Positions 6,943-56,618 are shown, counted from the first letter of the stretch. The stretch is DNA of 64,000 nt from Bacilli bacterium (GCA_045536365.1 JAZSNL010000020.1:30463-94462); one strand, 5' to 3'. The notes: a model not told the origin generated them from the sequence alone. Made by a program: numbers and translations.

Positions 6943-6943
6943 A

Positions 6944-38315: not shown

Positions 38316-38754
38316 TATATATATAATATTGTTACTCTTATTTATTTTTCCTTGTTTATCTAGTTGTAAAAAAATTATAACAACTGATAAAAATAGTGCT
38401 GATAAATATATAGAAACACTGTATAAATATCAAATAGGTCAAAAGAAAAATGGAATTATGATTGATTTAAGGGATATTGATATATATGCAGAAGGTCATA
38501 TTAAAGGTTTTATTAGTTATGATTATTTAAAAGATCCTGATGGGTTTATCCCTTATATGGAAGGAATGTACTCAAAAGATAAAGTAGTCTTTTTACTAAG
38601 TGATGAAAGTGACTTGATACTTGAAGTGTCAAAAATTTTACAAGAAAACGGGTATAAGAAGATATATATTTATTTAGATGGATATGATAGTTTAATTAGT
38701 CTTTCATCTGATTATTTCTTTATTGAAACTGGTTTAGATAATTGTGGATGTTAA
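38305..38754 (+). CDS. rhodanese-domain lipoprotein
   Basis: Lipobox LSSCKK; DLRDIDIYAEGHIKG rhodanese fold. Confidence 0.55.
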   Translation: MKRSIYIILLLLFIFPCLSSCKKIITTDKNSADKYIETLYKYQIGQKKNGIMIDLRDIDIYAEGHIKGFISYDYLKDPDGFIPYMEGMYSKDKVVFLLSDESDLILEVSKILQENGYKKIYIYLDGYDSLISLSSDYFFIETGLDNCGC

Positions 38755-38787
38755 AAAAGAATCTGTATTACAGATTCTTTTTTAATT
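38755..38787 (+). terminator. Rho-independent terminator (left edge of island)
   Basis: AAAGAATCTGTA-TTA-CAGATTCTTT + TTTT. Confidence 0.75.
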
Positions 38788-38874
38788 AATTTTTACTGTT
38801 TCGACAAAAAACGACAAATTTCTTCTTTCGATAATAGTATAATAAAGTTGTAAAAGTAAGAAAGGAGATATAAT

Positions 38875-41800
38875 ATGAAGAAAATTTTTATTATAATATT
38901 AGTTATATCGCTAATATTAAACAGTATTCCGTTTGCACCACTAGGAAAATTACTAGCAGCGGAATCAAATTCAATTGAGGAAACAATAGTTTCAAATAAT
39001 ATGGAGGGTTCAGATGAAATTGAATATGAAATTGAATCATTAAGAGAACCTAATTTAAAAGTATTTAAAAGAAAAGATGGATTAATAGAATATAACTATT
39101 ATGAAGAAAATGTTCATTATTTAGAAGATGGTATATATAAAGAATATGATGTTTCTTTTAATGAATCAAATAGTTCGTATTCTAATACTGTAAATGGATA
39201 TGAAGTAGTGCTTCCCAAGAATTTAAAAAAGTCTAATATTATATTAAGACATCAAGAGGATGTTTTGAAAATAAAATATTTAAGTAATACTTCAAGTAAT
39301 TCCTCATCTAAAAAAATAAAAGAAGAAAAAGAAAATAAAAAAGATGTAATTACTACAAAGTCTAAAGTAGAATATAAAAATGTTTTAAAACATTCAATTA
39401 TTGAATTAATCCATACACCTACAGGATTAAAAGAAAATATTATATTAGAAAAGTATGTTAAAAATTATAGTTTTAGTTATATAATTGAAACTAGTTTAAA
39501 ATTAGTAAATGAAAATGATACTTTATATTTTTATAATGATTATGAAAAAGAAATATTTAGATTTAATCCTTATAATATTGTAGATAGTCAAAATAGGATA
39601 TCATATGATGTAGAGTTAAATATATCAATTACAGAAGAAGGTTACTTAGTAGATGTTATACCAAGTGATGAAGTATTAAAAGAATTTACTTATCCAATAA
39701 CAATTGATCCAGTAATTGAATATTCGAGTTCTACAATAGCCAGCAATATAAAAACTAAGTATTTCAGAAAAAATTTCAATGGAACAACACCAGGAATTAA
39801 AATAGAAAAATATGTTAATACTTTCCAAAATGCAGATGGTACATTTGGTAGTGAAGATATTTCTACTCTTACCATAATGGAGATAGATGAAGATATATTG
39901 GATGATAATCTTAATGTAGACACAATTAAATTTGCAAAATTAAAATTTAGGATTAAATCTTCAACACAGGATAATTCATATGATATAGCTGTAAATAGAA
40001 TAACGAGATTCTATGTTGGTGATGTGCCTTTTATTTCATATCCATATGATAATATAGATGGATACACAAATTATGAAACAAAGTCGATAGGAACTATGAA
40101 AAGAGTTGAAAACGCGTATGAACTCGATTTAACAAATGTAATCAAAGAAACAAAACATAACACAATGGTGTTAGAACTTACTGCAAAAAACATACCTAAT
40201 AATGAAGAAAATGTTATTTTATATGATTCTTCTTATACAGATAATAGTCAGAGACCTATGTTAACAATAGCATATATGGACAGCATGGGATTAATTGACT
40301 TTTTAACTTATCATACAGTAACATCAGGTAATACAACAGCTTACGTAAATGATTGTTTTGGTAATTTGGTCGTTGAACAAACTGATTATTTATCAAATTC
40401 AGAAAAAATATCATTTGATATAAGTCATTATTATAATATATCTTCTTCTACTACATCGGATTATGATGTAGGATATGGAAGAGGTATGACTTTAAGTTAC
40501 CTTGAAAGGGTTGTTCCAGAAACGTTAAATACTGAATATTATTCTGTTATTGAATCAACAGGTAGAAAAAAGTATTATAAAAAAGGAGCTATTACTCAAA
40601 ATGGATTTACCTATGTTAGTGAAGAGGGAGATGATGAATACTTAATAGTAAATTTAGCATCTTCAGTACCATATAAAAAAGTCATTCAAGAAAAATATGC
40701 GTATTGTTATGATAATGAAGGATATTTAGTAAAAATAATGGAACGCTTTACTCTGACTACTTTTATAGAGATCACTTATAAAACTACAACATATAGGGGT
40801 AATAAATTAATAGATGAAATAAAGGATTCTTCTAATAACTACGCAAAATTTATATATGAAAATAATCACTTATCAAAGATTCAAATATATAAAGCTACAT
40901 ACGAAGGAGAAAATGTTATAGGATATGAAATATCACAAACTAATAAATATGAATATGATAGTTCATTTAGAATGATAAAAACTTTATATTATAAAGGAAA
41001 TGAAGAAATTCTATTAGGTAAAGAAGAATATGAATACAATACAACAGATGATACATTATTAAAAATAGAGAGTTATAATTATAATGGAACTGAATATATT
41101 TTCATATCAAATATGGAGTTTTTATATTTAAATGAACAAGTAGTAGAATATTCTTCTCTTTTAGGTAGTAACAAAGAAAATGAAACTACTATGAAGATGT
41201 ATATTGAGTATGGAGATAGAACAACTACATTCACTAATAGCCTGGGACAAAGCACAAAATATTTATTTGATTATTTCGGACATACAAAAACAGTAATTGA
41301 TAATTATGGTAATACAACACATTATAAATATGCAAATTACAATAATGAACTATATAAGGATAATCCAAATTATGTTTTGAAACATCAAATTGAGGAAGTA
41401 TCAAGTCCTGTGAATTTAGGTTATAATTTAATTGATAATCATTCATTTGAAGAAGGAGAAAACCATTGGAATATATATTCTGGGGATATAGTGTATACTT
41501 CTGCATATGGATTAAAAGCATTGAAAGTAGATTTATCAAATAGTAATGAGAATACCGTTACAGCAAACCAAAAAATTAGTGTACAGACAAATAAAGTATA
41601 TACCCTTACCGCATTTATTAAAGGAAGCGGTGATATTTTGATAGTATCAGATAATGAAAATTATACTGTTTCCCAAAGCGAGTTGACTGAAACTACTGAT
41701 GATTATTTTTTATATAAAAAAACATTTAGTGTAAGCAGCATAGATCCAGATGAAGAATATGCAGAAGTGTATATTAATTTATGTACAAAAGAAACAGATC

Positions 41801-44800
41801 AATTTTCTGAACAAGTATACTTTGATCAAATAATGATAGATAAAAATAATATTGATACAATATACAATATGTTAATTAATCCATCGTTTGAAGAAAACAA
41901 TAGTTGGAGTGGAGGACAAAGGATATTAAGAACTTCTGACCAATCAATGTTTGGTAATTATGAAATGAAAGTGAGTGGTAACTCAATAGTTCATCAAGAA
42001 TTTGATGGTGTTCATATTCTAAAAGATACAACTATTACCATAGGTGGATTTGTAAGAACAAATGGAACAAGTGTACGTTTAAGAGTGCAATTTTTGAATT
42101 CAGAAACAGGATCAATGTCTAATTCATATGTAGTTCAATTTTACCCATATTTAACAGATTATCAATTTAATCTAAGTGAGTTTTCAGTAGAAGATGAATT
42201 TAGTACTGAATATTATGATGTCGTTTTCTTTGATATTATTAATACGGGAGAAATTGATTGTTATGTTGATAATTTAATATTAACATATGATTTATATGAA
42301 ATAAAATATGAATATAATGAACTTGGTTATCAAACTAAAAGCATATATGGTTCTTCAGTTACGTCAATAGAATATAAGAGTGATAATAGAACACCGGTAA
42401 AAATAACAAAAGATAATAAAGAATTATCATTAGATATACAAACATTCTCTACATCAATAGAATTTGATAATGTTAATATAACTGAAAATAAAAACTCATA
42501 TAATCAAGTAACATCTACTATAATAAATGATAAGCAAGTTAGTGAGACAGAATACGGTTATAATAATCAATATGTTACTTCACAAACAATTATCGGCAAT
42601 ATAGTAGAATATTCTTATGATTATTTATATGGTCTTTTGAACTCTGTTGAATATTCTGATGGTAATACCATTCAATATCAATATGATGATTACAATAGAT
42701 TATTACAAACAAGTTTCACTAAAGGAAAAATTAGTTATTTATATGATGATTATGGTAATATTGAAAAAATAGAAATACTAGGACAACTTGGCAATATATT
42801 AATGAGTTATTATTTTGAATATAATGAACATTTTGATATAGAAACTATATATGTAGGAAAAGATACAAATAAAGATAGAATCATTAAATATGAATATTTG
42901 TATTTAACATTATCAAATGGTAATGAAGTATATACTGGATTAATTAATAAAGTTATTAAAGGAAATAATGATGATAATTATGAAAGATACGAATACGATA
43001 AAGAATTTAATTTATATAAAACATATATTAAAAAGCCAAATATAGAAGAAACATTAATATCAGAGTTGTTATATGATAATTACAAGAATTTATCATTTTA
43101 TAAAGATTATGTTGATAACAAAATATATATGTATAATTATGATAAAGAGAATAGATTAATAAGTTGTCTTGATGAAAAAGGTAATGGTGTAAAATATCAA
43201 TATTTAACAATAGACAGTGACCAAAAAGAAAAAGTAATAGTTGAATATATTGTTGATAATACTGTTTTAACGACTATGACGTTTATATATAAAGAAGATG
43301 AATTAATAGAATATTTGACAAATGATATAAAGTCAAATCCTCAAGCAATTATTGACGATTATGATAGAGTGACTGAAAAACTATTAACCACAACGGATAA
43401 TAATGAATTGATAAAATATATTTATCAATACAATGAAGACAAAATCAGTCAATTAGATGGTTATGAAATAAAAATAGGTAATGATACATTAAAATATGGA
43501 TATTCATATGACATATATGGAAATATAATTCAAATAATAAAATATAAAAATAATGTAGAATTTGAAAAAATAGAATATCAATATAATAATAATCAAGAGC
43601 TATTACAAGAAAAAATTACAAGAAATAATGTAATAGTATTAGTAACAAATTATACATATAATACTATAGGTAACATAACATCAATAACAAGAACTACAAA
43701 ACAAGGAGAATATAGTAATTTACCATATAAAATCGAATTTATGTATGATACTAATGTTAGAATGAAATTATTATACTATAGAGTATATTTACATGGTTCT
43801 TTATCTTATACAACATACAACATTACATATGATGAATTTGGAAATATAAGACATGATGGTAAAAACTTGTTTATATATGATATAGATAAACTTATAAATA
43901 TTCAAAATGATAATAATAATATAATTTATGATTATAATAGTGATGGAGTACGCATCTATAAAAAAATAATAAATTTAGATGACACATATGAAGAAGTACA
44001 TTATGATGTATCAGGAGATATCATTTTAAAAGAAACAAGATATGATTCTTCAACAAACACAACAACATATATAATATATATTTATGATGAATCAGGAGTA
44101 GTAGGATTCAAAGTAGGAACAGATATAAATAACTTAACAACATACTATTTTGTAAAAAATCTCCAAAATGATATAATACAAATTATTGACACAAATGAAA
44201 ATGTTGTGGTAGAATATACTTATGATGCGTATGGCAATGTATTTGTATCAGGAACATTATCAAATACAATAGGAAAACTTAATCCATATAGATACAGAGG
44301 GTATTATTATGATGAGGAAACTCAGCTTTATTGGGTATCCTCAAGGTATTATTCACCAGAATTATGTAGATTTATAAGTCCTGATGATGTAGAATATCTA
44401 GATCCAGAATCATTAAATGGATTAAACTTATACTGCTATTGTGTGAACAATCCTATTATGTATATTGATCCTTATGGAAATGATGCAATTTTAATAACTG
44501 AATATTTACCAATGGGGTTACCTATTGTAGGTCACTCTGTTTTATTCGTTCAAGATGAAAATGGAGAATGGTGGATTACTGAATATTCAGGTTCTTTTCC
44601 TGATAAGAGTACTGCTCATGTTATTTGTAGAAAAGCTACACAGTCGGATTGGGAAAGATTTAAGCCGCAAAAAGGGTTTTGGAACTCTATTAAAAATCTG
44701 TTTCAAATTTCAGGGAATTCATCAGTTTATTTAAAAGGTGATTATTCTAACAGTTTAAGTAAAGCACAAAGCTTAAATGGTTTGGATTTTGGTGGATATC

Positions 44801-45006
44801 ACGCATTTACAAATAATTGCTTGCATTACGTTAAATCGATTTTAAGTGAAACAAATATTGATTCAGTTACGAATAATTATTTTAAGAATTCAAAAATTTT
44901 TATTCCATGCATGTTTACAAATATGACTACATTATGTAGTGTGATTGATGATGTAATTGATACTGGAAATAAAGTTTATAATTTTATAAAAGGTATTTTC
45001 AACTAA
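38875..45006 (+). CDS. Sec-secreted RHS/YD-repeat polymorphic toxin (WapA-like), 2043 aa, with variable C-terminal toxin domain
   Basis: N-terminal signal peptide; two CBM4/9-like beta-sandwich regions (~41.4-42.3 kb); many YD repeats (YEYDSSFRMIKT, YSYDYLYGLLNSVEYSDGNTIQYQYDDYNRL, YTYDAYGNV); RHS core end RYRGYYYDEETQLYWVSSRYYSPELCRFISPDDVEYLDPESLNGLNLYCYCVNNPIMYIDPYGN; ~175-aa C-terminal tip. Confidence 0.85.
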   Translation: MKKIFIIILVISLILNSIPFAPLGKLLAAESNSIEETIVSNNMEGSDEIEYEIESLREPNLKVFKRKDGLIEYNYYEENVHYLEDGIYKEYDVSFNESNSSYSNTVNGYEVVLPKNLKKSNIILRHQEDVLKIKYLSNTSSNSSSKKIKEEKENKKDVITTKSKVEYKNVLKHSIIELIHTPTGLKENIILEKYVKNYSFSYIIETSLKLVNENDTLYFYNDYEKEIFRFNPYNIVDSQNRISYDVELNISITEEGYLVDVIPSDEVLKEFTYPITIDPVIEYSSSTIASNIKTKYFRKNFNGTTPGIKIEKYVNTFQNADGTFGSEDISTLTIMEIDEDILDDNLNVDTIKFAKLKFRIKSSTQDNSYDIAVNRITRFYVGDVPFISYPYDNIDGYTNYETKSIGTMKRVENAYELDLTNVIKETKHNTMVLELTAKNIPNNEENVILYDSSYTDNSQRPMLTIAYMDSMGLIDFLTYHTVTSGNTTAYVNDCFGNLVVEQTDYLSNSEKISFDISHYYNISSSTTSDYDVGYGRGMTLSYLERVVPETLNTEYYSVIESTGRKKYYKKGAITQNGFTYVSEEGDDEYLIVNLASSVPYKKVIQEKYAYCYDNEGYLVKIMERFTLTTFIEITYKTTTYRGNKLIDEIKDSSNNYAKFIYENNHLSKIQIYKATYEGENVIGYEISQTNKYEYDSSFRMIKTLYYKGNEEILLGKEEYEYNTTDDTLLKIESYNYNGTEYIFISNMEFLYLNEQVVEYSSLLGSNKENETTMKMYIEYGDRTTTFTNSLGQSTKYLFDYFGHTKTVIDNYGNTTHYKYANYNNELYKDNPNYVLKHQIEEVSSPVNLGYNLIDNHSFEEGENHWNIYSGDIVYTSAYGLKALKVDLSNSNENTVTANQKISVQTNKVYTLTAFIKGSGDILIVSDNENYTVSQSELTETTDDYFLYKKTFSVSSIDPDEEYAEVYINLCTKETDQFSEQVYFDQIMIDKNNIDTIYNMLINPSFEENNSWSGGQRILRTSDQSMFGNYEMKVSGNSIVHQEFDGVHILKDTTITIGGFVRTNGTSVRLRVQFLNSETGSMSNSYVVQFYPYLTDYQFNLSEFSVEDEFSTEYYDVVFFDIINTGEIDCYVDNLILTYDLYEIKYEYNELGYQTKSIYGSSVTSIEYKSDNRTPVKITKDNKELSLDIQTFSTSIEFDNVNITENKNSYNQVTSTIINDKQVSETEYGYNNQYVTSQTIIGNIVEYSYDYLYGLLNSVEYSDGNTIQYQYDDYNRLLQTSFTKGKISYLYDDYGNIEKIEILGQLGNILMSYYFEYNEHFDIETIYVGKDTNKDRIIKYEYLYLTLSNGNEVYTGLINKVIKGNNDDNYERYEYDKEFNLYKTYIKKPNIEETLISELLYDNYKNLSFYKDYVDNKIYMYNYDKENRLISCLDEKGNGVKYQYLTIDSDQKEKVIVEYIVDNTVLTTMTFIYKEDELIEYLTNDIKSNPQAIIDDYDRVTEKLLTTTDNNELIKYIYQYNEDKISQLDGYEIKIGNDTLKYGYSYDIYGNIIQIIKYKNNVEFEKIEYQYNNNQELLQEKITRNNVIVLVTNYTYNTIGNITSITRTTKQGEYSNLPYKIEFMYDTNVRMKLLYYRVYLHGSLSYTTYNITYDEFGNIRHDGKNLFIYDIDKLINIQNDNNNIIYDYNSDGVRIYKKIINLDDTYEEVHYDVSGDIILKETRYDSSTNTTTYIIYIYDESGVVGFKVGTDINNLTTYYFVKNLQNDIIQIIDTNENVVVEYTYDAYGNVFVSGTLSNTIGKLNPYRYRGYYYDEETQLYWVSSRYYSPELCRFISPDDVEYLDPESLNGLNLYCYCVNNPIMYIDPYGNDAILITEYLPMGLPIVGHSVLFVQDENGEWWITEYSGSFPDKSTAHVICRKATQSDWERFKPQKGFWNSIKNLFQISGNSSVYLKGDYSNSLSKAQSLNGLDFGGYHAFTNNCLHYVKSILSETNIDSVTNNYFKNSKIFIPCMFTNMTTLCSVIDDVIDTGNKVYNFIKGIFN
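44236..44440 (+). repeat. RHS core-end repeat (copy in full-length gene)
   Basis: ~205 nt nearly identical to 47375..47580; weaker copies at 45822..45990, 48851..49012, 51962..52013. Confidence 0.7.
44479..45003 (+). other. C-terminal toxin tip: permuted papain-fold (NlpC/P60 superfamily, PPPDE/LRAT-like) candidate domain
   Basis: His-containing VGHSVLFVQDENGEWWITEYSGS followed ~100 aa later by YHAFTNNCLHYV (cf. NC[NE]HF of PPPDE/LRAT). Confidence 0.35.
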
Positions 45007-45028
45007 ATTTATATTGAAGGAGGCATTT

Positions 45029-45676
45029 ATGAAAAAAATAATAAATAAATTGGGACTATTGATATTTTTATTTATTTTTATCGTTAGTGGATGTTCTATA
45101 AAAAGAAAAATAAAATTTGAAAATGAACAATTAATATATAAAGACACTTGTTATTCACTAGATGAAAATTATTTACCTATCGTTTGTGAAGGAGACATGA
45201 TTGAAATAGATAGAATTTTAGGAATATTTGGATTGCACAAATATTATATTAGTTCTTTAGATGTTGATAGCAATATTATTTATGACAATAAAAATCGATT
45301 TTACAAAGATGGCTTTCTACTTCCAAATGATAATAAAGATAATATTTCTAAAATATATATGACAATGAGTTTTAAAGGGAACTTTGATGATGAACTTCAA
45401 AAAACAGATGTTATACAATTTAATAATTCAGATTCAGTTTATTTAGATGACATAATTAATGAATGCCCAATAGATGAAGTTAAAATAGATAACAAATATA
45501 GTTTCTGGTTATTTATTATATATGAAAATTATTTATTTATGTCTATTCAATATGATATATACTATATGAACAATGAAATTTATTTTACAAAATATTATGA
45601 TAATGAACATTTATATAAAGTAAATGATAATTATAAAAAATATTTTGAAGAATCAATTATAAGAATATTGAAATAA
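45029..45676 (+). CDS. putative cognate immunity lipoprotein of the RHS toxin
   Basis: Immediately downstream (22 nt) of toxin stop, GAAGGAGG RBS; lipobox IVSGCS. Confidence 0.5.
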   Translation: MKKIINKLGLLIFLFIFIVSGCSIKRKIKFENEQLIYKDTCYSLDENYLPIVCEGDMIEIDRILGIFGLHKYYISSLDVDSNIIYDNKNRFYKDGFLLPNDNKDNISKIYMTMSFKGNFDDELQKTDVIQFNNSDSVYLDDIINECPIDEVKIDNKYSFWLFIIYENYLFMSIQYDIYYMNNEIYFTKYYDNEHLYKVNDNYKKYFEESIIRILK

Positions 45677-45813
45677 AAAATATAAATAGTTAGTTAAAAG
45701 TAGGCCGGTAAAGATGGTTATCTCTAATAGCCACCTTACAGGCTACCTAACTAGTTATTTTAGACATTATTTTATAAATTTATTATGTCTGAATATTTAG
45801 GACACCATTCGAT

Positions 45814-46392
45814 ATGATGTTGAAACTCAGCTTTTTTTGGGTATCCTCACGTTACTATTCGCCTGAATTATGTAGGTTTATAAGTCTTGATGATATTGAA
45901 TATTTAGATCCAGAATCAGTAAATGGATTGAACTTATGCAGCTATTGTGTGAACAACCCTGTTATGTATGTTGATAGTTCAGGAAATTTTCCTGTTATAG
46001 CATTTATTATAGGCGGAATTGCTGTAGGAGCGGTTGCTTCGGTTATTGTGGTTCTAGGAGTGAAAAATTGTACTTCTAAAAAAAATCCATTAAAAGAAAA
46101 TGATAAAATAAAAAATTCAGAAGGTAAAAAAAAGGATGATTTATTGGCGGATTTTTCTGATACAATTATGCCTGAATATAATCCAAAAGGTATGGCTAAT
46201 AATATTAATACCATTATAACGAATGATATAGTAAACTATCCAGCTAATTCATTGCCTATACAACCCTATGGAGCTGGAGGTTACGAAATCCCTAATGGTG
46301 ATTATAGTAGGTATAGCGGTGGAAGAGCTTTCTTTGATTCAACTTACGAAGAAGATTTATTTGATGTTATATTAAGTCTAAACATATGGTGA
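45814..46392 (+). CDS. orphan RHS C-terminal toxin cassette 1 (core-end remnant + alternative tip with TM helix)
   Basis: WVSSRYYSPELCRFISLDDIEYLDPESVNGLNLCSYCVNNPVMYVDSSGN is homologous at nt and aa level to 44331..44476; own ATG; 1-nt indel versus parental frame upstream. Confidence 0.6.
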   Translation: MMLKLSFFWVSSRYYSPELCRFISLDDIEYLDPESVNGLNLCSYCVNNPVMYVDSSGNFPVIAFIIGGIAVGAVASVIVVLGVKNCTSKKNPLKENDKIKNSEGKKKDDLLADFSDTIMPEYNPKGMANNINTIITNDIVNYPANSLPIQPYGAGGYEIPNGDYSRYSGGRAFFDSTYEEDLFDVILSLNIW

Positions 46393-46446
46393 TAAACATT
46401 CAAGTTTTCACTATGTTATAATTAGCCTATAGAAAAGGAGTAAAAT

Positions 46447-47337
46447 ATGAAAAAAAGATTCTTAATGATAATCATGATACTGTTAATAATATCATGTTCT
46501 GGATGTGAAAATAAGAAATTAGATTTAGAAACACTATATGAAAAAAATGCTAAAGTAGCAACAAGTTATTTTCCAGGATGGGGTGCAGATGATTATAAGT
46601 GCGAATTATTTATCTTCGAACCTGAAAATGCTACTGATTTTGAACTTGGACTTTGTTCTCCATATAATTTAGATGGTGTAGAAAAAGTTCTATATGTTAA
46701 GTATGAAAGAACTGATGAGATTCCATTTGTTGTTGCTTTACAATATAAATCAGTTAGACTTGCAAAAGAAGCCTATGAATTATATGGTTCGCAAAAATAT
46801 TTGCGAGAAGCAAATATTTTAGCACTTCCGATTACTCCTGCGTATATGTTTATATATGGACGCTATATAAAAGTTGATGGATATTATTTAAGTCCTGATG
46901 GTGAAGCTTTATTATATGATGGTCAAACACTAACAAGAACTGATATCGTCATACCAGAAGGTGTAAAATGTGTAGTAATGTGGAGTTTATTTTCAAAGAA
47001 AGTTAAAACTATTAAATGTAATGATGAGTTAGAGGTTTTATATTGTTGTTCGCTTGGTTATCTTGATGCACTAGAAAAAGTAGAATTAAATGATGGATTA
47101 AAAGAAATTGGCGGAGAGTGCTTTATCATGCATAATTTAGAATATATCGTTATTCCAAAAAGCGTTGAGTTAATTGGTGCTGAAGCATTTCAAAATGTAA
47201 CGATTTATTGTGAAATAGAGGAAAAACCTATAGGATGGCATAAAAATTTTGCAGGAGAAAATTGTAAAGTCTATTGGGGAGGAACATGGAAATATGTAGA
47301 TGGAATTCCTCGACCAAACAGATGGATAGAAAGATAA
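46447..47337 (+). CDS. lipoprotein with BspA-type leucine-rich repeats (LRR_5); putative immunity protein for cassette 1
   Basis: Lipobox ISCSGC; repeats LEKVELNDGLKEIGGECF / LEYIVIPKSVELIGAEAF. Confidence 0.5.
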   Translation: MKKRFLMIIMILLIISCSGCENKKLDLETLYEKNAKVATSYFPGWGADDYKCELFIFEPENATDFELGLCSPYNLDGVEKVLYVKYERTDEIPFVVALQYKSVRLAKEAYELYGSQKYLREANILALPITPAYMFIYGRYIKVDGYYLSPDGEALLYDGQTLTRTDIVIPEGVKCVVMWSLFSKKVKTIKCNDELEVLYCCSLGYLDALEKVELNDGLKEIGGECFIMHNLEYIVIPKSVELIGAEAFQNVTIYCEIEEKPIGWHKNFAGENCKVYWGGTWKYVDGIPRPNRWIER

Positions 47338-47374
47338 TAATTAAAATCGTAAAATAACTAATAAATATGTACAC

Positions 47375-47580
47375 AATGTATTTATATCAGGAACATTATC
47401 AAATACAATAGGAAAACTTAATCCATATAGATACAGAGGGTATTATTATGATGAGGAAACTCAGCTTTATTGGTTATCCTCAAGGTATTATTCACCAGAA
47501 TTATGTAGATTTATAAGTCCTGATGATGTAAGTTATCTTGATCCAGAAAGTATCAATGGATTGAACTTATATGTGTACTG
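47375..47580 (+). repeat. RHS core-end repeat (orphan cassette 2 copy)
   Basis: see 44236..44440. Confidence 0.7.
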
Positions 47581-48136
47581 TGGAAATGATCCCGTTAATA
47601 AGTATGATCCTAGCGGGCATAGTGCAATTTTAGCTAATTTAATTGCGAAGGGAATTTTAGCTATAGATACAATTGCAGAAACTGCTATATTGATGAATTC
47701 AGACAAATATAAAGCTGAGAATGTTTATCATGTTAATCCATCAACTGGTGAGGGAAATGTACATATTCCTAATTCTGCTGCATTTAATAACCCAATAGCT
47801 CAATTAATTTATTCTAATTATCTATATGAAAATGTAAAGAATAAAGATGGAAGCAATTTTTTTACAGGTGATCCTTATGATATTGTTGGTGAATGGCAAG
47901 CACATAATTTTGCGGCTAATTTAACAGGTTCATTAATGGTATTGAGTTTTATTCCTTTAGCATCATTATCAAATGGAGATTATTTTTGGTCAAAATTATA
48001 TAACGCACACAGTAGAAGTGTTCATACTGATATAGGTCCAAATATAGACTCTGAAAAAAGAGGAATAGTTAGAGTTGTATCAAAGATTTATAAATGGATT
48101 AATAAAATTAAAAGCTTTGATATTCTTAATTGGTAA
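47378..48136 (+). CDS. orphan RHS C-terminal toxin cassette 2 (no ATG; in-frame homology from 47378, ORF-track start 47561)
   Basis: VFISGTLSNTIGKLNPYRYRGYYYDEETQLYWLSSRYYSPELCRFISPDDVSYLDPESINGLNLYVYCGNDPVNKYDPSGH; nt 47375-47580 nearly identical to 44236-44440. Confidence 0.6.
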   Translation, partial: VFISGTLSNTIGKLNPYRYRGYYYDEETQLYWLSSRYYSPELCRFISPDDVSYLDPESINGLNLYVYCGNDPVNKYDPSGHSAILANLIAKGILAIDTIAETAILMNSDKYKAENVYHVNPSTGEGNVHIPNSAAFNNPIAQLIYSNYLYENVKNKDGSNFFTGDPYDIVGEWQAHNFAANLTGSLMVLSFIPLASLSNGDYFWSKLYNAHSRSVHTDIGPNIDSEKRGIVRVVSKIYKWINKIKSFDILNW

Positions 48137-48162
48137 TTGTATATTAAAGGAGTAGGGATCAT

Positions 48163-48702
48163 ATGAAAAAAATAAAGTTAATTGCATTATTAATTTTTTC
48201 TGGATTTATAGTTACATTGATATTCGGATTTTTAATCGATATTGATTACTCAAAAAACGTCATAAAAACAAGTGATAAATCGCTTTATGAGATGAATGAA
48301 TATTATTTTTTACCTAACTATAATGAATTTGAATATAAAGAAAATGTTACCGGGTTTTACACATATGATTCCTCTAATACACTTTCTGGAGGAAGTGTTT
48401 CTTATGTATTAGAATTACAATTTGCAACTAAAAAAGTCTATAATGAATTTTTAGAATATGAGTACACAAGATATGAATATGATAGTAATTCAATCATTTT
48501 AAAAAATAATTATGAATGTTATTTGTGTTTGAATGAAGATATTACTCAATATTATTATGGTGAATATATGCCGTATGCGTTAGGAATGTTATGTTTAAAT
48601 GAAAAAGATATAAAAATTAGATATGTATACTATGTTAATATAGAACATTCCATAGATAATAAATTTAATGATGTATTTCAAAATACAAATTGTACTTGGT
48701 GA
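48163..48702 (+). CDS. membrane-anchored/exported protein; putative immunity protein for cassette 2
   Basis: N-terminal TM/signal anchor; follows cassette 2 by 27 nt with AGGAG RBS. Confidence 0.45.
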   Translation: MKKIKLIALLIFSGFIVTLIFGFLIDIDYSKNVIKTSDKSLYEMNEYYFLPNYNEFEYKENVTGFYTYDSSNTLSGGSVSYVLELQFATKKVYNEFLEYEYTRYEYDSNSIILKNNYECYLCLNEDITQYYYGEYMPYALGMLCLNEKDIKIRYVYYVNIEHSIDNKFNDVFQNTNCTW

Positions 48703-48850
48703 ACGTATTGATTTTAGAAAGAGCATAGGGAGAATATTATTTTATAATATTTCTCCGAGTGCTTAATTATGTAAATTGGATACCAATTTCATTACTAACA
48801 TATTATAATTAGGATATAGTTATTATGAGGATACTCGTAATAGCCCTGTT

Positions 48851-49498
48851 GAAACTCAGTTATTCTATTGCAACTCTAGATATTATTCACCTGAACTTTG
48901 TAGGTTCATAAGTCCAGATAGTATTGAGTATTTAGATCCTGAAAGTATCAATGGATTGAACTTATATGCGTACTGTGGAAATGATCCCGTTAATAAGTAT
49001 GATCCTACAGGTCACATCGCGATTAGTACAATTATTGGAATAATTCTTGGTATAGGTGCTTTGGCGGCAACCGCTAATGATATTTATCAAATTGCAAGTG
49101 GAAATGTGTATGTAGATATGAATAAAACAGATAATGAAAATGTTCATATTGAAAATTCCTATAAAATACTAACCCCTTGGATGAGATATGGTTATAGTTT
49201 CTATTTGAATCATTTTAATCCTAATACTAAAGATGTTATTCAGGGAAGTACAGCAGGAGTTCAATTTGAATGGGAATTGCATAATTATGCTGCTTGGCTG
49301 GGTTTTGGTGGAGAGCCAGCTAAACATCTTGATGTTGGAAAAACTATATTTGCGGATGGGGAAGCTCATCCATTAAGGGATAAAGATGGTGATATCACAA
49401 AAGAAGGTGTGATGTCACTAGGAATGAGGATAGGTTATATTTTATCAGGTAACCCTATATATTGGATTCCGGATTTAATTATAAATGGAGGATTTTAA
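48851..49498 (+). CDS. orphan RHS C-terminal toxin cassette 3 (no ATG; frame open from 48809, ORF-track start 48956)
   Basis: ETQLFYCNSRYYSPELCRFISPDSIEYLDPESINGLNLYAYCGNDPVNKYDPTGH then unique ~160-aa tip; 48956-49012 almost identical to 47556-47612. Confidence 0.6.
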   Translation, partial: ETQLFYCNSRYYSPELCRFISPDSIEYLDPESINGLNLYAYCGNDPVNKYDPTGHIAISTIIGIILGIGALAATANDIYQIASGNVYVDMNKTDNENVHIENSYKILTPWMRYGYSFYLNHFNPNTKDVIQGSTAGVQFEWELHNYAAWLGFGGEPAKHLDVGKTIFADGEAHPLRDKDGDITKEGVMSLGMRIGYILSGNPIYWIPDLIINGGF

Positions 49499-49625
49499 AA
49501 TGAAAAAGATATGCGTATTACTTTTAACAATATTAACTTTGCTTTTAACTTCCTGTGGAGAAGACACAACACGATTAGCAAAAGATGAATTTTCGAAATA
49601 TTATAATGGAAGAAATGAAGTTGTT
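49412..49625 (+). repeat. toxin-3 tail/imm-3 start repeat; second copy at 50893..51100
   Basis: ~85-90 % identical over ~210 nt including RBS and lipoprotein signal peptide coding. Confidence 0.65.
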
Positions 49626-50357
49626 TTAAATTATTTAGATAATCTTTACTTTGAAAATTATATCCTTAGTTTAAGTGATTTGATAGAAAAGAGTGAATTT
49701 AATAATGGTTTGATTATAAAACAAGATAAATTCTTTTTTTCAACCTCTACAGAAAATTCAATGTATGATTTCACTTTAAATATTTATGAGGCAAATTTAC
49801 AAGGCACGAATGTAAAAATGATTTTTTCCAAAGATGGGTATAAAACTCATCCTTGGGTCTATGCTATTGATGAAATGTTTTATGTGGAATTTTATTCAAA
49901 TAATGCTTTTGATTTAAAAAGTAAATTAATTGATAAATATACAATATCTACAAGAATTTATGAGAATGTTGCTAGTGGAGAGGATTGTTCTTTATCTGAC
50001 TATTTTCAAAGTGACTCTCAAAGTAGATACAGTATTGAAGTAGTAGAAAACATATCTCCTCAAGAACATGGTGAATTTATTATTACTGACTTAGAAAATG
50101 GAATAACTAATATTATAGATGATGATTACTTAAAAGATACGATTTATATTGAGTCTATGGAAAAATTTAATTATAGTCCAATGAGATTTGATATATCAAA
50201 TGACAAGATTTTATTAACATATGGAATAGGTGCAGGAGATGGATGGAATAATGCGCATTTGATATTTGAATATGATTTTAATTCGAATAAATTAAAATAT
50301 CAATTACTTGCATTTCCAGATGATTTGATGAATGTAAAAATTATATACATTGGTTAA
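49499..50357 (+). CDS. lipoprotein; putative immunity protein for cassette 3
   Basis: ATG 49499 6 nt after GGAGGA lying in the toxin's last codons; lipobox LLTSCG. Confidence 0.5.
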
Positions 50358-50807
50358 ATTTTAAATTCTCGTGTACTAATAAAAACCAAACAAAACTCAA
50401 AATATTTGACATTCAAGAGAAAAAGTAATAGAACCAAAGTTATTTTGGTAAAACAATTGCTTTTGATTTTTATAATATAGATGAAGTAATATTGTTTGAG
50501 AATATTATTAATTAATATTACTTTTAGGAGACACTTGGATACGAAGATGATTATTACAAACATAATTAATAATTTTGTAGACTAATATAAAAAATATCAT
50601 TATTAACAAGGGTGGAACTGAGTAATATCAGTTTCATCCTTTCTTACATTTAGTGGGAAAGAAGCGAAACCTAGGTATTCTAGTTGTCGCAATAGTCGAA
50701 AATGCAATTTGTTGCATTTTCCTTATCCTGCCTCTAAAATAAGCAAATTTTCAACACTTTTGAGTTAGATATTTAAATTTAATATTTTTGTTTTTAGTTG
50801 ATTAATT

Positions 50808-50836
50808 TTGTATTAATATAAAAAATGTGGTATAAT
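50808..50836 (+). promoter_or_regulatory. extended -10 promoter, followed by perfect 9-4-9 palindrome (50849..50870)
   Basis: TTGTAT-17-TGgTATAAT; palindrome TAATTATCC-ACAA-GGATAATTA lies just downstream of the predicted start. Confidence 0.45.
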
Positions 50837-50881
50837 CATTATGTGAAATAATTATCCACAAGGATAATTAAGATTATGACG

Positions 50882-50975
50882 TCGAGTAATGTCATTAGAA
50901 TGAGGATAGCTTATATTAGGTTTGGTAACCCTATGTTTTGGATTCCGGATTTAATTGTGAATGGAGGATTTTAAA
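50882..50975 (+). pseudogene. internally deleted remnant of a cassette-3-type toxin (only last ~25 codons retained)
   Basis: ...MRIAYIRFGNPMFWIPDLIVNGGF* matches the tail of 48851..49498; 5' junction fused directly to this tail. Confidence 0.55.
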
Positions 50976-51818
50976 TTGAAGAAGATATGCCTATTATTTT
51001 TAACAATATTAACTTTGCTTTTAACTTCTTGTAGATAAGATACAACGCAATTAGCAAAAGATGAGTTTTCGAAATATTATAATGGGAAAGACGAAGTTGT
51101 CTTAAATATTGAAGACAATCTTTATTTTGAAAATCATATTTTAGAGAGTGAAAGTTTAAAAAATTCATATGGTTCTATAGTTTTTCACGAAAACTTAATT
51201 TATTATGTATCAATTAATAGTTTAAAGAAAAAATATAGAAATGAATTTATAAACATTTATACCTGTGATTGCTATGGCGAAAATACAAATATTATTTATT
51301 CAAAAGAGATAAATACAAATAGTAATATTACATTAAAAACAAATAAAGACTCTTATTATATTGAATACAAAAAAGAAAAGTTGATTTATATTGATAAATA
51401 CACAATATCAACAGGAATTTACGAAAATATTGCTAGTGGCAAAGATTGTAGTCTATCTGATTATATGCCAAAAGAAGAACAAAGCAGATATAGTATTGAA
51501 GTAATAGAAAATATATCACCTCAAAAACACGGAAAATTTATTGTCACTGATTTAGAAACAGGTTTATCTAATATAATAGATGATGAATATTTAAGGAACA
51601 CAATATATATTGAGTCTATGGAGAAGTTTAATTATAGTCCTAAAAGAGTTGATATATCTAACGGACATATTTTATTAACATATGGAATAGGTGCAGGAGA
51701 TGGATGGAACTATCCACATTTAGTTTTTGAATATGATTTTGATTCAAATACATTGGAATACAAATTATTAGCATTTCCATTTGATAGCGTGCCTATAGAG
51801 ATTATCTATATTGGTTAA
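50976..51818 (+). pseudogene. paralog of immunity lipoprotein 49499..50357 inactivated by a single nonsense codon (TAA 51036..51038)
   Basis: LKKICLLFLTILTLLLTSCR*; frame then stays open to 51818 and is ~70 % identical in its C-half to imm-3 (ORF-track piece 51381..51818). Confidence 0.6.
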
Positions 51819-51961
51819 AAAGTCGATATTATAGAAACAGGATAAGAGTTGTGCTCAAATTTTGGGTACAACTCTGATTCCGCAAATGGGATACCCATTT
51901 CAAGTTTATAAGAATGAAGAAGCAATATTATCTATATATTTGTTAGTTAATATTTAAGGAT

Positions 51962-52070
51962 AACCAAGATTATGACGGCGAAACTCAGTTATTTTATTGC
52001 AACTCTAGATATTATTCGCCTGAATTATGCATATGGATTTACCATTTTCTCTGCGGGAGGCAATTTGGGT
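51962..52070 (+). repeat. fourth RHS core/toxin junction remnant (truncated after ~30 codons)
   Basis: GAAACTCAGTTATTTTATTGCAACTCTAGATATTATTCGCCTGAATTATGC = ETQLFYCNSRYYSPELC, then stop; same junction sequence as cassette 3. Confidence 0.55.
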
Positions 52071-52337
52071 AGAAAAGATTGGTATTTAGACGAGAGTAAA
52101 GAAAGATCGATATATTTTAGTGGTTTTAATTTAGAGGTTTCTATAGAAATATCAGAAGATATGAAAAGTGAAAAGGATTTGTTTAGTGTGGCTTGCAGTA
52201 TTTTTAAATTTGGATATGATGGAAAATTTATTGATTTTAACATAGCTTTAGGTCTTACACAAGAATATATTAATATTGATATTGTTGCTATTATTCGAGA
52301 GATAGAAGACGTTTTAAAAAATGGGAGAAGAGTATAA
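51972..52337 (+). CDS. hypothetical ORF (+1 frame relative to RHS remnant); possible orphan immunity/cargo gene or spurious
   Basis: 121-aa ORF overlapping the junction remnant in a different frame. Confidence 0.25.
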   Translation: MTAKLSYFIATLDIIRLNYAYGFTIFSAGGNLGRKDWYLDESKERSIYFSGFNLEVSIEISEDMKSEKDLFSVACSIFKFGYDGKFIDFNIALGLTQEYINIDIVAIIREIEDVLKNGRRV

Positions 52338-53088: not shown

Positions 53089-53937
53089 TTATTTTACTTT
53101 TATGATGCGGTGGTCTTCTATAATAATTAAACGTTTTTTGTATAGATTACCCACTGCTCTTTTGAAAGCACTTTTACTCATTTGAAAGTATTTTGATATT
53201 TCTTCTGGAGTTGAAGCATTACCAAGAGGTAATACTCCTCCCATTTTATCTAAATAATCTAATATTATTTGGCTATCGTCTAATCTTGCTACTTCTTTTT
53301 GTGCAATAGTAGTACCATAATAATATCCTTTTTCATTAATATGGTTAATGGTAAATTCGATTCTTTCACCTAAACGGTATTTTTTTCTGATTAAGCTTTT
53401 ATGAATAAAAACATAATTATAATCATCTGTGTAAATACCTAGTCCTTCACTGTTAATTTTAGATACAGTGCCTGATGATGATTCTCCTTTACTTAATTTA
53501 ATTATTTCTTTTATTTTGTCTTCATGATTAATAATTCTTGCGGTAAGTTGATCTGTTTTACTCTTTAATATACATGGTAATTTATCACCAACCATTGGCC
53601 ATGCTTTGCGGTAATTAGGTAAGTAATCTGCTGATAGTAATATATCTTTTGTAATACCAATATTAACAAATACTCCTGCGTCATTTATTCCGACTACTTC
53701 AACAAAACCATATTGATCGATAGTGATTAAAGGTTCTTCCATTGTTGCACAAAGTCTTTTCTTTTGATCATAGTATAAAAATGCTTTTATTTCTTCTCCC
53801 GGTGTTAGTTTTCTTGTTGCTTGATTGAAGTGTAAAAAGACATAGGTTGTTAATTCAGGATCTTTTGGACTTAAAGTATAACTGATATCAGTTTCTCTTT
53901 TTACAATAAATTCATTAACTGCACCGACTTTTAACAT
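53089..53937 (-). CDS. cvfB: CvfB/YitL-family S1-domain RNA-binding protein
   Basis: 282 aa; tandem S1-like domains and C-terminal winged helix (SKSAFKRAVGNLYKKRLI). Confidence 0.6.
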   Translation of the reverse strand: MLKVGAVNEFIVKRETDISYTLSPKDPELTTYVFLHFNQATRKLTPGEEIKAFLYYDQKKRLCATMEEPLITIDQYGFVEVVGINDAGVFVNIGITKDILLSADYLPNYRKAWPMVGDKLPCILKSKTDQLTARIINHEDKIKEIIKLSKGESSSGTVSKINSEGLGIYTDDYNYVFIHKSLIRKKYRLGERIEFTINHINEKGYYYGTTIAQKEVARLDDSQIILDYLDKMGGVLPLGNASTPEEISKYFQMSKSAFKRAVGNLYKKRLIIIEDHRIIKVK

Positions 53938-55769: not shown

Positions 55770-56618
55770 TTATTTTGCATTTCTTGGATATCTTGTTAAT
55801 CTTCTTGAATACATTCTAAGAGGTTTTCTGAAATTGAAAATTAATGTATGAGTTTTTAATCCTTGAATTATATAGAAAGCATTATAGAATATTGCAAGGA
55901 ATACAATATATATAAATAAGAATAATGGATAACTCATACCTAATGTATTTTGAACATCGTTACCTGGTCTAAAATACATCGGATCTGTTGAGATTTTTAA
56001 TACATAGATTTGTAAGAATGTATATCCCAAGATAACCAAGAAACAAATTAATTCTCGCAAAGCGCTTTTTTTAAGAGAACCATCATAATATTTAAAATCA
56101 GTAAATCTTAATGTTATCATACTAATTGATGTGATAAATAGTAATGAATGAGTTACAATTGAATAAATATTTTCAAATTGAAAATATTTATTACAGAATC
56201 CTGCTGCAGGATATGCGAAAAAGATAAGTACATTTAATATTGCAGATATTGCAGTGAAATTATAAAAGAATTTTTTATCTATTATTATTGATAAAATCAT
56301 ACACCAAACTGACATAGCACACCAAGGACGTGGTAAAAGATTCCACATTAAATGTTCTATTGCAAAATAGTCTCCTGATTTAGATAAGATTCCCTTTGCT
56401 ATATAGATGCCTCTTCTTGTAAGTTCAAAAAATAAAAGTCCGAATACTAATCCTCTAATTACCCAAAGTCTTGTTTTATAATCTTTATTTCTTAAAAAAG
56501 ATAATCCTATTGTTATTAAGATGCATAATACTAAAGTGATAATGTGGGCTGGCCCCCAAGCGCCGTCAATTTCTGGATTCACTGAAGATTCACTAAAAAT
56601 CCATTGATGAAATGTCAT
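55770..56618 (-). CDS. integral membrane protein (YwaF/TIGR02206-like)
   Basis: 282 aa multi-TM; paralog of next gene. Confidence 0.4.
   Translation of the reverse strand: MTFHQWIFSESSVNPEIDGAWGPAHIITLVLCILITIGLSFLRNKDYKTRLWVIRGLVFGLLFFELTRRGIYIAKGILSKSGDYFAIEHLMWNLLPRPWCAMSVWCMILSIIIDKKFFYNFTAISAILNVLIFFAYPAAGFCNKYFQFENIYSIVTHSLLFITSISMITLRFTDFKYYDGSLKKSALRELICFLVILGYTFLQIYVLKISTDPMYFRPGNDVQNTLGMSYPLFLFIYIVFLAIFYNAFYIIQGLKTHTLIFNFRKPLRMYSRRLTRYPRNAK

Follow-up and report, generated by a model that had tools for sequence, protein, structure and literature searches.

The Bacillus subtilis protein WapA was reportedly described by Koskiniemi et al. in 2013 as a Sec-exported, wall-associated toxin of the Rhs family. 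The locus analyzed here lies in a stretch of 64,000 nucleotides from a Bacilli-class bacterium (the window; all positions are counted from its first letter) and resembles WapA in that a Gram-positive Rhs/YD-repeat protein begins with a signal peptide, ends in a polymorphic toxin and has its immunity gene next to it; it is set apart from that description by YD repeats too divergent for Pfam and by a long orphan array. In Salmonella Typhimurium LT2, a stretch of 522 bp in the main rhs gene is 95% identical to its counterpart in the orphan, and recombination between the two fuses the core to the orphan tip and leads to expression of the orphan toxin, a switch thought to need an earlier duplication (PMC3967940). 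For enterobacterial rhs loci, Jackson et al. (2009) reported that attached and dissociated tips within a locus have identical core regions, and C-terminal displacement was proposed (PMC2935791). Orphan CdiA-CT/CdiI modules (Poole et al. 2011) are without translation initiation signals, keep the junction motif and have an expressible immunity gene next to them, and such arrays are regarded as a store from which toxin and immunity diversity can be drawn (PMC3150448). Tandem immunity paralogues of the Firmicutes T7SS are described as shaped by homologous recombination (PMC9484751).

The locus is an instance of this known C-terminal displacement and orphan-switching architecture. As in the LT2 rhs-main/rhs-CT-orphan region (PMC3967940), a full-length rhs gene is followed by its immunity gene and by an orphan pair whose 5′ end is a near-identical copy of the core end. 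Unlike in LT2, where recombination is known, the repeat here measures 157 nt at 98.7% identity and recombination was not observed. The orphan fragments number four, compared to a single one in LT2; they belong to an uncultured bacterium of the class Bacilli with a low GC content, whose Rhs protein bears a Sec-type signal peptide and has no T6SS genes nearby. Arrays of dissociated tips with core fragments of varying length, identity of the core parts of attached and dissociated tips within a locus, the evolutionary decoupling of core and tips, and the presence of the same tips on other cores in other genomes are all shared with enterobacterial rhs loci (PMC2935791), from which this locus differs in its core clade and phylum, in mosaic breakpoints that can be resolved within the final 260 nt of the core, and in the serine-recombinase integration that sister strains add at the same junction. 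The start-less orphan fragments with a junction motif and an immunity gene after each recall the CdiA-CT/CdiI arrays, but delivery there is by two-partner secretion with a VENN motif, compared to an Rhs shell and a DPxG motif here (PMC3150448). The T7SS loci likewise involve homologous recombination between tandem related sequences in Firmicutes toxin/immunity loci, but the recombining units are immunity genes there and the conserved toxin core end here (PMC9484751).

A reading made from the sequence alone (the sequence-only reading) had proposed a main Rhs gene followed by orphan tip/immunity cassettes, and this was borne out by TIGR03696 matches in the main gene and orphans 1 to 3. The features are as follows.

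38750..38786, + strand: hairpin resembling a terminator, where the DNA block common to the window begins on the left; block found in the second-locus relatives L003, L004 and L005
38875..45006, + strand: main Rhs gene, 2043 aa (ORF and translation)
43855..44313, + strand: constant core-end block (identity profile)
44235..44391, + strand: near-identical tract of repeat copy 1 (segment A plus segment B), translated as NVFVSGTLSNTIGKLNPYRYRGYYYDEETQLYWVSSRYYSPELCRFISPDDV
44392..44493, + strand: diverged homologous tail of copy 1 (segment C), ending at the DPYGN motif that closes the core
44451..44452, no strand: insertion position of serine-recombinase mobile elements in sister strains; the window is the empty site
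44476..45003, + strand: predicted toxin tip A, with only a sub-threshold LRAT/NlpC-like hint (Pfam LRAT, E = 0.072)
45014..45676, + strand: putative tip A immunity gene (ORF)
45813..46392, + strand: orphan 1, short core-end fragment and tip (TIGR03696, E = 5.6e-11)
46447..47337, + strand: putative immunity gene 1, BspA-type LRR lipoprotein (Pfam LRR_5, E = 3.3e-9)
47338..47373, + strand: spacer from immunity gene 1 to the orphan-2 core fragment; boundary common to L016-L025
47345..48136, + strand: orphan 2 open frame (TIGR03696, E = 2.7e-20)
47374..47530, + strand: repeat copy 2, near-identical tract, at the orphan 2 5′ end
47531..47632, + strand: diverged tail of copy 2 (segment C), of the orphan-2 tip lineage
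48163..48702, + strand: putative immunity gene 2 (ORF; cluster n = 56)
48851..49498, + strand: orphan 3, core-end fragment and tip (TIGR03696, E = 2.9e-16)
49485..50357, + strand: putative immunity gene 3, lipoprotein-like (sequence)
50559..50836, no strand: conserved intergenic piece with a terminator-like hairpin inside (50608-50641)
50876..51818, + strand: degenerate duplicate of the tip 3 end and immunity gene 3 (repeat families, translations)
51980..52034, + strand: orphan 4, a 55-nt core-end remnant (sequence comparison)

The main Rhs protein consists of an N-terminal signal peptide, a divergent YD-repeat core, a core-end domain and, last, toxin tip A. A search for TIGR03696, the RHS repeat-associated core domain, placed it at aa 1783-1868 with a score of 70.6 bits (cut-off 32.5; E = 1.2e-19), and the repeat coincides with this domain in the main gene and in orphans 1 to 3. 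The repeat had been placed at the core/tip junction, and it does lie there, just upstream of the DPxG motif; motifs of this type appear in the translations as YIDPYGN and YDPSGH. Pfam searches with the whole protein and four sub-fragments gave nothing significant (best, RHS_repeat, E = 0.36); YD-like motifs such as YxYDxxGN were seen by eye, and relatives 63-86% identical to the last 311 aa (through DPxG) carry precomputed PF05593 or PF25023. Homology to L003 and L005 begins at 38755.

Four promoter-less orphan tip fragments, three of them with immunity genes, lie 3′ of the main gene. Putative immunity ORFs directly follow tip A and orphans 1 to 3, each behind a Shine-Dalgarno-like GGAGG or AAGGAG; that of tip A likely starts at ATG 45030 behind a GGAGG ribosome-binding site, and its N terminus resembles a lipoprotein signal. 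In orphan 2, the first ATG, GTG or TTG after the upstream stop is TTG 47561, and no Shine-Dalgarno sequence was found; orphans 3 and 4 resemble it in missing translation initiation signals, and the ATG of orphan 1, at 45814, may be fortuitous. Tip A had no match in a PDB sequence search, and the tips had no relatives in Pfam and PDB sequence searches. The toxins and immunity proteins are presumably active. A close relative of immunity gene 2 found on 24 contigs (P0151) lay in orphan arrays in 10 of the 10 places listed.

We then determined the extent of the repeat, for which near-identity over ∼205 nt (44236..44440 and 47375..47580) had been claimed. A direct repeat with an ungapped offset of 3139 is present there, but its near-identical part is only 157 nt long (44235-44391 versus 47374-47530; 155/157 bases, 98.7%), with mismatches at 44245 (G/A) and 44335 (G/T) and longest exact tracts of 89 and 56 nt. 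The span 44236-44440 matches at 188 of 205 positions (91.7%), and its final part, 44392-44440, at only 69%; identity over the whole homologous tail (44392-44493, 102 bases) is 66.7%, and the flanks are at background (left 29%, right 25%; unrelated). The maximum chi-square breakpoint falls after 44391 (mismatches 2/157 versus 34/102; Fisher p = 1e-13) and is abrupt, being matched by 0 of 2000 permutations. Self-BLAST over the whole 64 kb, a self-comparison suggested with the original claim, confined the repeats to this rhs array. Shorter copies had been placed at 45822, 48851 and 51962, and all three exist, but the third is at 51980-52034. The orphan 1 copy (from 45813/45822) has one extra nucleotide and matches the main gene at 83% along 161 nt, the orphan 3 copy (from 48851) is 78% identical to orphan 2 over 177 nt (83% over the final 102 nt), and the orphan 4 copy is 87% identical to orphan 3 over 55 nt and unrelated beyond.

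The same breakpoint is seen in the codons. Between the copies there are no synonymous differences in the 50 amino-acid-identical codons of 44236-44391, whereas 8 of 22 such codons differ synonymously in 44392-44493 (Fisher p = 2.7e-5), so that synonymous-site identity falls across 44391 from 100% to 64% (14/22 amino-acid-identical codons). Identity in the repeat is thus far higher than that of neighboring synonymous sites, the comparison on which the sequence-only reading was to stand or fall. Over the 34 codons of segment C, the copies show 8 synonymous and 12 amino-acid differences; both mismatches within the repeat alter an amino acid (V/I and V/L).

Taken together, these data suggest that the repeat, two copies of the 3′ end of the Rhs core, probably owes its identity to recent homologous recombination and is still a substrate for switching. 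One copy lies in the main gene, which we take to be expressed, and the other heads a promoter-less, start-less orphan toxin/immunity cassette. Orphan 2 may formerly have been the attached tip and been shifted downstream when a 3.1-kb block, comprising tip A, its immunity gene, orphan 1 and the immunity gene of orphan 1, recombined into the core end. Alternatively or additionally, gene conversion between the copies could have homogenized them, and at least one conversion-like event from orphan 2 to the main gene is needed to account for 44314-44391.

Relatives of the locus are known from metagenome assemblies only, and related rhs arrays occur at two loci, after a rhodanese gene and after recX. 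By sequence comparison, they show within-genome homogenization and tip exchange at the core/tip junction. In segment A (44235-44313), the window's main gene and orphan 2 are 99% identical and two paralogues in L016 (o1 and p2) are 96% identical, whereas window orphan 2 and L016 p2, positional orthologues from different genomes, are 90% identical. Across 44314-44391 (segment B), identity between the main gene and orphan 2 is 99%, but the main gene's orthologues reach only 64% (L003), 71% (L005), 69% (L034) and 83% (L026) identity to it; the encoded peptide is the same in these orthologues, yet there are 9-10 synonymous changes. Segment C of copy 1 is 86% identical to the tip-A allele of L005; for that of copy 2, the values are 87% (L006 orphan 2), 83% (window orphan 3) and 79% (L001). 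The core end is a mosaic. In L006, another organism (housekeeping DNA 77% identical to the window), the orphan-2 tip stands behind a 495-nt, ∼99% repeat of that organism's own rhs fragment. L016-L025 are 93.5% identical to the window over 45853-47580, after which another tip follows. In L034 and L035, the core is shared up to 44491 and 44481, respectively, with new tips beyond, L026 (same locus, same species) has yet another tip, and related cores bear further tips; no fewer than five different tips follow the same core end. The orphan-1 tip recurs in L016 on a longer core fragment; in P0001, on a contig of just 1.4 kb, a tip 88% identical to that of orphan 2 comes after at least 170 aa belonging to another core; and tip A, attached in the window, is effectively an orphan in L005 and L096-L100. 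Ongoing gene conversion had been claimed for the repeat, and within-genome homogenization agrees with this, but conversion may not be ongoing: a recent cassette insertion by homologous recombination (C-terminal displacement) would also give such a repeat.

Such an insertion could by itself have produced the repeat, although we think this rather doubtful. The repeat would then be a crossover duplication, dating from the integration by homologous recombination of a linear or circular cassette (core fragment, tip A and immunity gene, orphan 1 and immunity gene, spacer) before a then-attached tip 2, with no later conversion, and its identity would mirror only how recent the event was. This corresponds to the model of Jackson et al. 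(PMC2935791); the two copies start 3139 bp apart, the length of one such unit, and the boundary at 47373/47374 is common to L016-L025 with a different tip beyond, which fits one cassette end and various resident tips. However, tip A in L005, its only other sampled context, is preceded by the other segment B type (71%). A single crossover in the well-matched segment A would leave the L005 type, so the orphan-2 type of the main gene argues against pure insertion. In addition, window orphan 2 has diverged from L016 p2 by 10-13% in segments A and B, about twice as far as the adjacent cassette DNA, which points to later overwriting; the tract 47289-47373, comprising the end of immunity gene 1 and the spacer, is 96% identical in the comparison with relatives.

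It is very improbable that the tract has a function of its own as nucleic acid, for example as a structured RNA, in regulation or as the target of site-specific recombination, and is more than generic homology. Serine-recombinase elements do use the region in sister strains, at 44451, but this site lies in diverged segment C, 60 nt beyond the near-identical tract. The 157 nt fold no better than shuffles (z = −1.13), Rfam had no matches in the window, and the equivalent repeat of L006 differs in sequence and length, so that what recurs is homology to the resident core and no particular sequence. Slimmer still is the chance that strains or loci were joined through a shared repeat during assembly, with the copies on separate molecules. 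The metagenomic origin of the relatives, the two array loci and the many relatives' contigs that end within or beside these arrays would fit such an artefact, but every junction in the window recurs in an independent assembly: the flank and main gene 5′ end in L026, L029 and L031; the whole core up to the repeat in L003/L004; the order repeat, tip A, immunity gene, orphan 1, immunity gene 1 in L005; immunity gene 1, spacer and orphan-2 core fragment in L016-L025; tip 2, immunity gene 2 and orphan-3 core in L006-L008, with an IS110 element interrupting; and the right flank in L026. The two differences between the copies show that they are not a collapsed repeat. Least probable of all is purifying selection on a conserved protein motif with biased codons in a 27% GC genome, since, although the tract encodes the most conserved Rhs motif and the genome is very AT-rich, the contrast of 0/50 with 8/22 synonymous differences speaks against protein-level selection, as do the 10 of 20 amino-acid-identical segment B codons that differ synonymously from L003, the changes in the adjoining 34 codons and the nonsynonymous nature of both in-repeat differences.

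Returning to homologous recombination as the preferred reading, if the copies underwent a RecA-type crossover, 3139 bp would be lost and tip 2 would come to lie in frame behind the main core; the reciprocal product would be a circle or a duplication. Joining 38875-44391 to 47531-48136 in silico gave 6123 nt with one terminal stop, an uninterrupted 2040-aa in-frame ORF, and immunity gene 2 starting 26 nt downstream. Tip switching presumably occurs in the window strain. The frequency of homologous recombination depends on homology length, and switching should be infrequent here because the near-identical tract, at 157 nt and with uninterrupted matches of no more than 89 and 56 nt, is far below the 522 bp of Salmonella. 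The proposal that recombination swaps tip and immunity gene while deleting the intervening cassettes is matched by the in-silico fusion and its loss of 3139 bp, but no recombinant was found: the main protein cluster (n = 5) held no fusion with orphan 2, none of the orphan-2 relatives bears the main gene's core, the main/orphan-2 junction pattern was absent from JGI metagenome contigs, and the relatives sampled included no full-length gene with tip 2. These missing recombinants weigh little against switching, very few strains of the organism having been sampled. By an argument made for Salmonella, simple deletion would also lose the tip-A immunity gene and be counter-selected among siblings (PMC3967940).

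The enterobacterial architecture of toxin diversification, a main Rhs gene and silent spare tips joined by core-end homology, thus appears to extend to an uncultured member of the class Bacilli that has a very AT-rich genome and a Sec-exported Rhs protein. Its metagenome relatives offer unusually clear comparative evidence, in the form of homogenization, mosaic breakpoints and at least five tips per core end. Its practical value is modest: the locus supplies a set of uncharacterized putative toxin/immunity pairs and the precise positions at which tip switching in gut communities could be assayed by PCR or long reads.

The serine-recombinase insertions at the junction are the sole element beyond textbook expectation. 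We suggest, tentatively and as a rather unlikely reading, that the final ∼0.5 kb of the core is a population-wide constant region for two independent mobility systems. The first would be homologous exchange of ∼3-kb tip/immunity cassettes from locus to locus and strain to strain. In the second, large serine-recombinase elements of one family would integrate site-specifically, with the codons for the Rhs motif N-P-I-M-Y (window 44451) as their attachment site. If true, the recombinases would be a second, unreported route that makes, and perhaps moves, orphan tips in Gram-positive Rhs loci. The core-end block 43855..44313 is 97-99% identical to the L026 allele, compared to only 55-75% for the remaining L026 core. 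The intergenic piece at 50559..50836 was found again near rhs arrays and mobile elements in other contigs.

The direct repeat between the main Rhs gene and orphan 2 (an orphan being a promoter-less core-end fragment with a tip) had been described in the sequence-only reading as a near-identical stretch of ~205 nt serving as a substrate for toxin-tip switching. The repeat is real but shorter: over that length identity averages 91.7%, being 98.7% in one part and 69% in the other. In an ungapped comparison (offset 3139), 44235-44391 in the main gene and 47374-47530 at the 5′ end of orphan 2 were identical at 155 of 157 positions, with mismatches at 44245 and 44335 and exact tracts of 89 and 56 nt, whereas 44392-44493 matched its orphan-2 counterpart at only 68 of 102. 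Self-comparison of the window, which that reading had proposed, showed non-uniform similarity along the repeat and a sharp drop after 44391; a maximum chi-square scan placed the change point there, and 0 of 2000 permutations equaled it. Identity in the 100 nt on either side of the repeat was at background (29% and 25%). A repeat finder reported a three-member family with its reference copy at 44235-44493, 86% identity for the copy at 47374-47632 and a weaker member at 45741-45999, while 48851 and 51980 were joined by further families; in self-BLAST of the whole window, repeats were confined to the rhs array.

We analyzed the codons on both sides of 44391. Within 44236-44391, 50 of 52 codons were identical, none differed synonymously, and both differences changed the amino acid; among the next 34 codons, 14 were identical, 8 differed synonymously, and 12 changed the residue (Fisher p = 2.7e-5 for the contrast). 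Identity in the repeat thus exceeds that at neighboring synonymous sites, and the outcome that would have refuted the sequence-only reading did not occur. The VSSRYYSPELCR peptide is also encoded by orthologous alleles of the main gene, but there segment B (44314-44391) shows 9-10 synonymous changes; protein-level selection thus does not explain the identity. An explanation by RNA structure was dropped, as the 157-nt fold was not unusual (z = -1.13). Rfam gave no match, either for the whole window or in a permissive search of 50300-51000.

The organism is uncultured and the window has 26.6% GC. Among RNase J relatives, the single named one is listed as 'Bacilli bacterium' (66% identity), which gives no genus. 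The locus is arranged as follows.

Upstream flank: rimM, trmD and a rhodanese gene
38875..45006: main gene, a 6.1-kb ORF encoding 2043 aa with a hydrophobic N-terminal signal sequence, ending in tip A
50608-50641: terminator-like hairpin, the first intergenic one downstream of the main gene
After immunity gene 3, in order: a conserved intergenic piece, a degenerate duplicate of tip 3 and immunity gene 3, orphan 4
Orphan 4: 55-nt core remnant
Downstream flank: cvfB

TIGR03696 (NCBIfam, RHS repeat-associated core domain) matched residues 1783-1868 of the main protein (E = 1.2e-19) and the 5′ ends of the frames starting at 45814, 47345 and 48851, which places the repeat at the junction of core and tip. 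The 2043-aa protein is Rhs by TIGR03696 and its homologues, although Pfam did not detect RHS/YD repeats in it, the best match being a subthreshold RHS_repeat (E = 0.36); either their divergence or their compositional bias puts them beyond the reach of the Pfam models. PF05593 or PF25023 is present on relatives of the core end. Across the main protein, tips and immunity proteins, Pfam found nothing beyond LRR_5 on immunity protein 1 and the subthreshold RHS_repeat and LRAT matches, the latter an LRAT/NlpC-like hint in tip A (E = 0.072), and neither tip A nor tip 2 had a match in PDB sequence searches. Each tip is followed by a small putative immunity ORF with a Shine-Dalgarno-like GGAGG or AAGGAG; the N termini of the products are signal- or lipoprotein-like, and one is a BspA-type LRR protein. 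Lipoprotein-like signals occur in three of the four (45014-45676, 46447-47337 and 49485-50357), which suggests that the toxins may act outside the cytoplasmic membrane. In orphan 2, the first start codon after the upstream stop is TTG 47561. Three weaker terminator-like candidates lie inside the orphan-1, immunity-2 and orphan-3 frames. Only terminator-like sites were used, and the promoter scan was uninformative because the DNA is AT-rich (148 sites found versus 134 expected). No T6SS or T7SS genes were seen adjoining the locus.

The tandem degenerate duplicate comprises the end of tip 3 and immunity gene 3 (49409-50358 versus 50886-51819, 79-86% identical), and its second copy of the immunity gene has shrunk to a 145-aa C-terminal ORF. 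The intergenic piece (50559-50836) contains the hairpin and a possible extended -10 promoter near 50826, and recurs at 78-83%, in either orientation, in the related metagenome contigs L003, L006, L026 and the L096 serine-recombinase element. BLASTP showed no relationship between two minus-strand ORFs of equal length (282 aa; 53089..53937 and 55770..56618) that had been suspected of being paralogues.

Relatives were sought at several levels. At 90% clustering, the main protein falls in a cluster of five. The closest variants all lie within one such cluster and were for that reason missed by a search that used the 311 aa of the main protein ending with the DPxG motif. A scan of species-representative genomes with the main protein found only one distant relative (28% identity) and was of no further use. 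We compared 38755-52530 with contigs from two chromosomal loci that carry near-identical rhs arrays, the first following the rhodanese gene (in the window and L026) and the second following recX (in L003-L005). L026 represents the same species and locus, with 97-98% identity in the flanks; identity in its main gene is 99-100% up to ~39900, 55-75% through the core, and 97-99% in 43855-44304, beyond which it has a different tip and immunity gene and lacks orphans 1-4. The main gene of L003/L004 is 97% identical over its full length. L005 has lost the core, with window position 38908 joined to ~44135 (L005 9870-9960), and retains tip A, orphan 1 and the immunity gene of each at 94%. In this allele the promoter and ~31 nt of the main-gene 5′ end remain but 5.2 kb of core is missing, which leaves an array without a delivery gene; one sample yielded both L005 and L026. 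The window differs from L026 over roughly 39900-52530, except in the core-end block, and this region looks like recX-locus-type material.

After aligning all junctions, we scored three successive segments of the core end. Segment A (44235-44313) was 95-99% identical among the main alleles of L003, L005, L026, L034 and L035; that of window orphan 2 was 99% identical to window main but only 90% to its positional orthologue, L016 p2, and the two copies within L016 were 96% identical. In segment B, window main and orphan 2 were 99% identical, but main matched L003, L005, L034 and L026 at only 64, 71, 69 and 83%; its ETQLYW codons are also found in window orphan 1 and L001, an orphan-2-type relative. 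Segment C (44392-44493) tracked tip lineage (main versus L005 tip A, 86%; window orphan 2 versus L006 orphan 2, 87%). This pattern indicates that the main gene holds an orphan-2-type island between a core and a tip of different ancestries. The housekeeping DNA of L006 shares only 77% identity with the window. In front of the same orphan-2 tip, L006 has a 495-nt repeat (~99%) of its own rhs fragment, and therefore the phenomenon recurs with another sequence and length. A truncated resolvase ORF (6354-6986) separates the rhs fragment from orphan 2 in L006. In this contig (8546-9715) and in L007-L010 and L015, all from a related organism, an inserted IS110-family transposase separates the orphan-2 tip from the immunity gene.

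Tips are exchanged at this junction. L016-L025 match 45853-47580 at 93.5% (from tip 1 through immunity gene 1 and the spacer to 207 nt into the orphan-2 core fragment) and continue into an unrelated tip. Identity to the main core runs to 44491 in L034 (94%) and to 44481 in L035 (89%); two further tips follow there, and related cores ending ...YTYDAYGNVFISGTLS.TIG.LNPYRYRGYYYD carry at least four more. L001 has a lone orphan-2-type module between housekeeping genes. Defense-type genes occupy the orphan position elsewhere: a TIR_2-domain protein downstream of the Rhs immunity gene (L026 18075-18860) and a CBASS-like set (Sa_NUDIX, SMODS, ThiF, JAB) directly after the rhs array (L016 6044-10018).

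The locus fits the published Rhs picture, in which, within one locus, attached and dissociated tips have identical core parts and tip cassettes are proposed to excise and insert by homologous recombination through the core fragment (Jackson et al., PMC2935791), and orphan modules lack initiation signals while their immunity genes are expressible (Poole et al., PMC3150448). In silico, a crossover anywhere in 44235-44391 joins the main core to tip 2 in one uninterrupted frame of 2040 aa, immediately followed by immunity gene 2, and would remove tip A, orphan 1 and the immunity gene of each. The predicted product agrees with the earlier proposal that tip and immunity are swapped together with loss of the intervening cassettes. 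A Salmonella study argued that duplication has to precede such a switch, because rhsI-main is lost in the simple deletion (PMC3967940). The predicted recombinant junction had no match in a metagenome scan, and the thin sampling of the five-member cluster, orphan-2 relatives and metagenome contigs contained no recombinants.

Gene conversion, which the sequence-only reading took the conservation to imply, and recent displacement cannot be separated as the origin of the identity. By displacement, a cassette inserted by homologous recombination would have created the repeat, and the spacer/core boundary common to the window and L016 fits such an insertion. To account for the orphan-2-type segment B of the main gene, one or more conversion-like events must be assumed, unless it was already present in a tip-A allele outside the sample. 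All junctions of the window recur in independent assemblies, which makes an assembly artefact unlikely. The interpretation is essentially the known model of Rhs orphan switching and C-terminal displacement, which the comparative data support.

In five contigs (L096-L100), tip A and its immunity gene, 99.9% identical to the window, start exactly at 44451/44452 (contig positions 4657, 4494, 1417, 333 and 325), immediately downstream of the end of a gene for a 495-aa large serine recombinase; the window represents the empty site. The insertion point in these sister strains is the Rhs core/tip junction, at codons N-P|I-M-Y, and thus the junction is also an integration site for mobile elements, which would be a second way of detaching the tip. 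The L003/L004 main gene departs from the window at the same place (L003 ~15593), and the downstream DNA joins the L096 element at 96%, implying that these contigs carry a ~14 kb insertion, flanked by the imperfect 13-bp repeat CCTRTKATGTRTA. The insert truncates the Rhs protein (P0131, ending ...DPVMCR-stop). Two different element variants abut this position. The recombinase has Resolvase, Recombinase, Zn_ribbon_recom and DUF4368 domains, with TnpV and DUF6291 genes further upstream.
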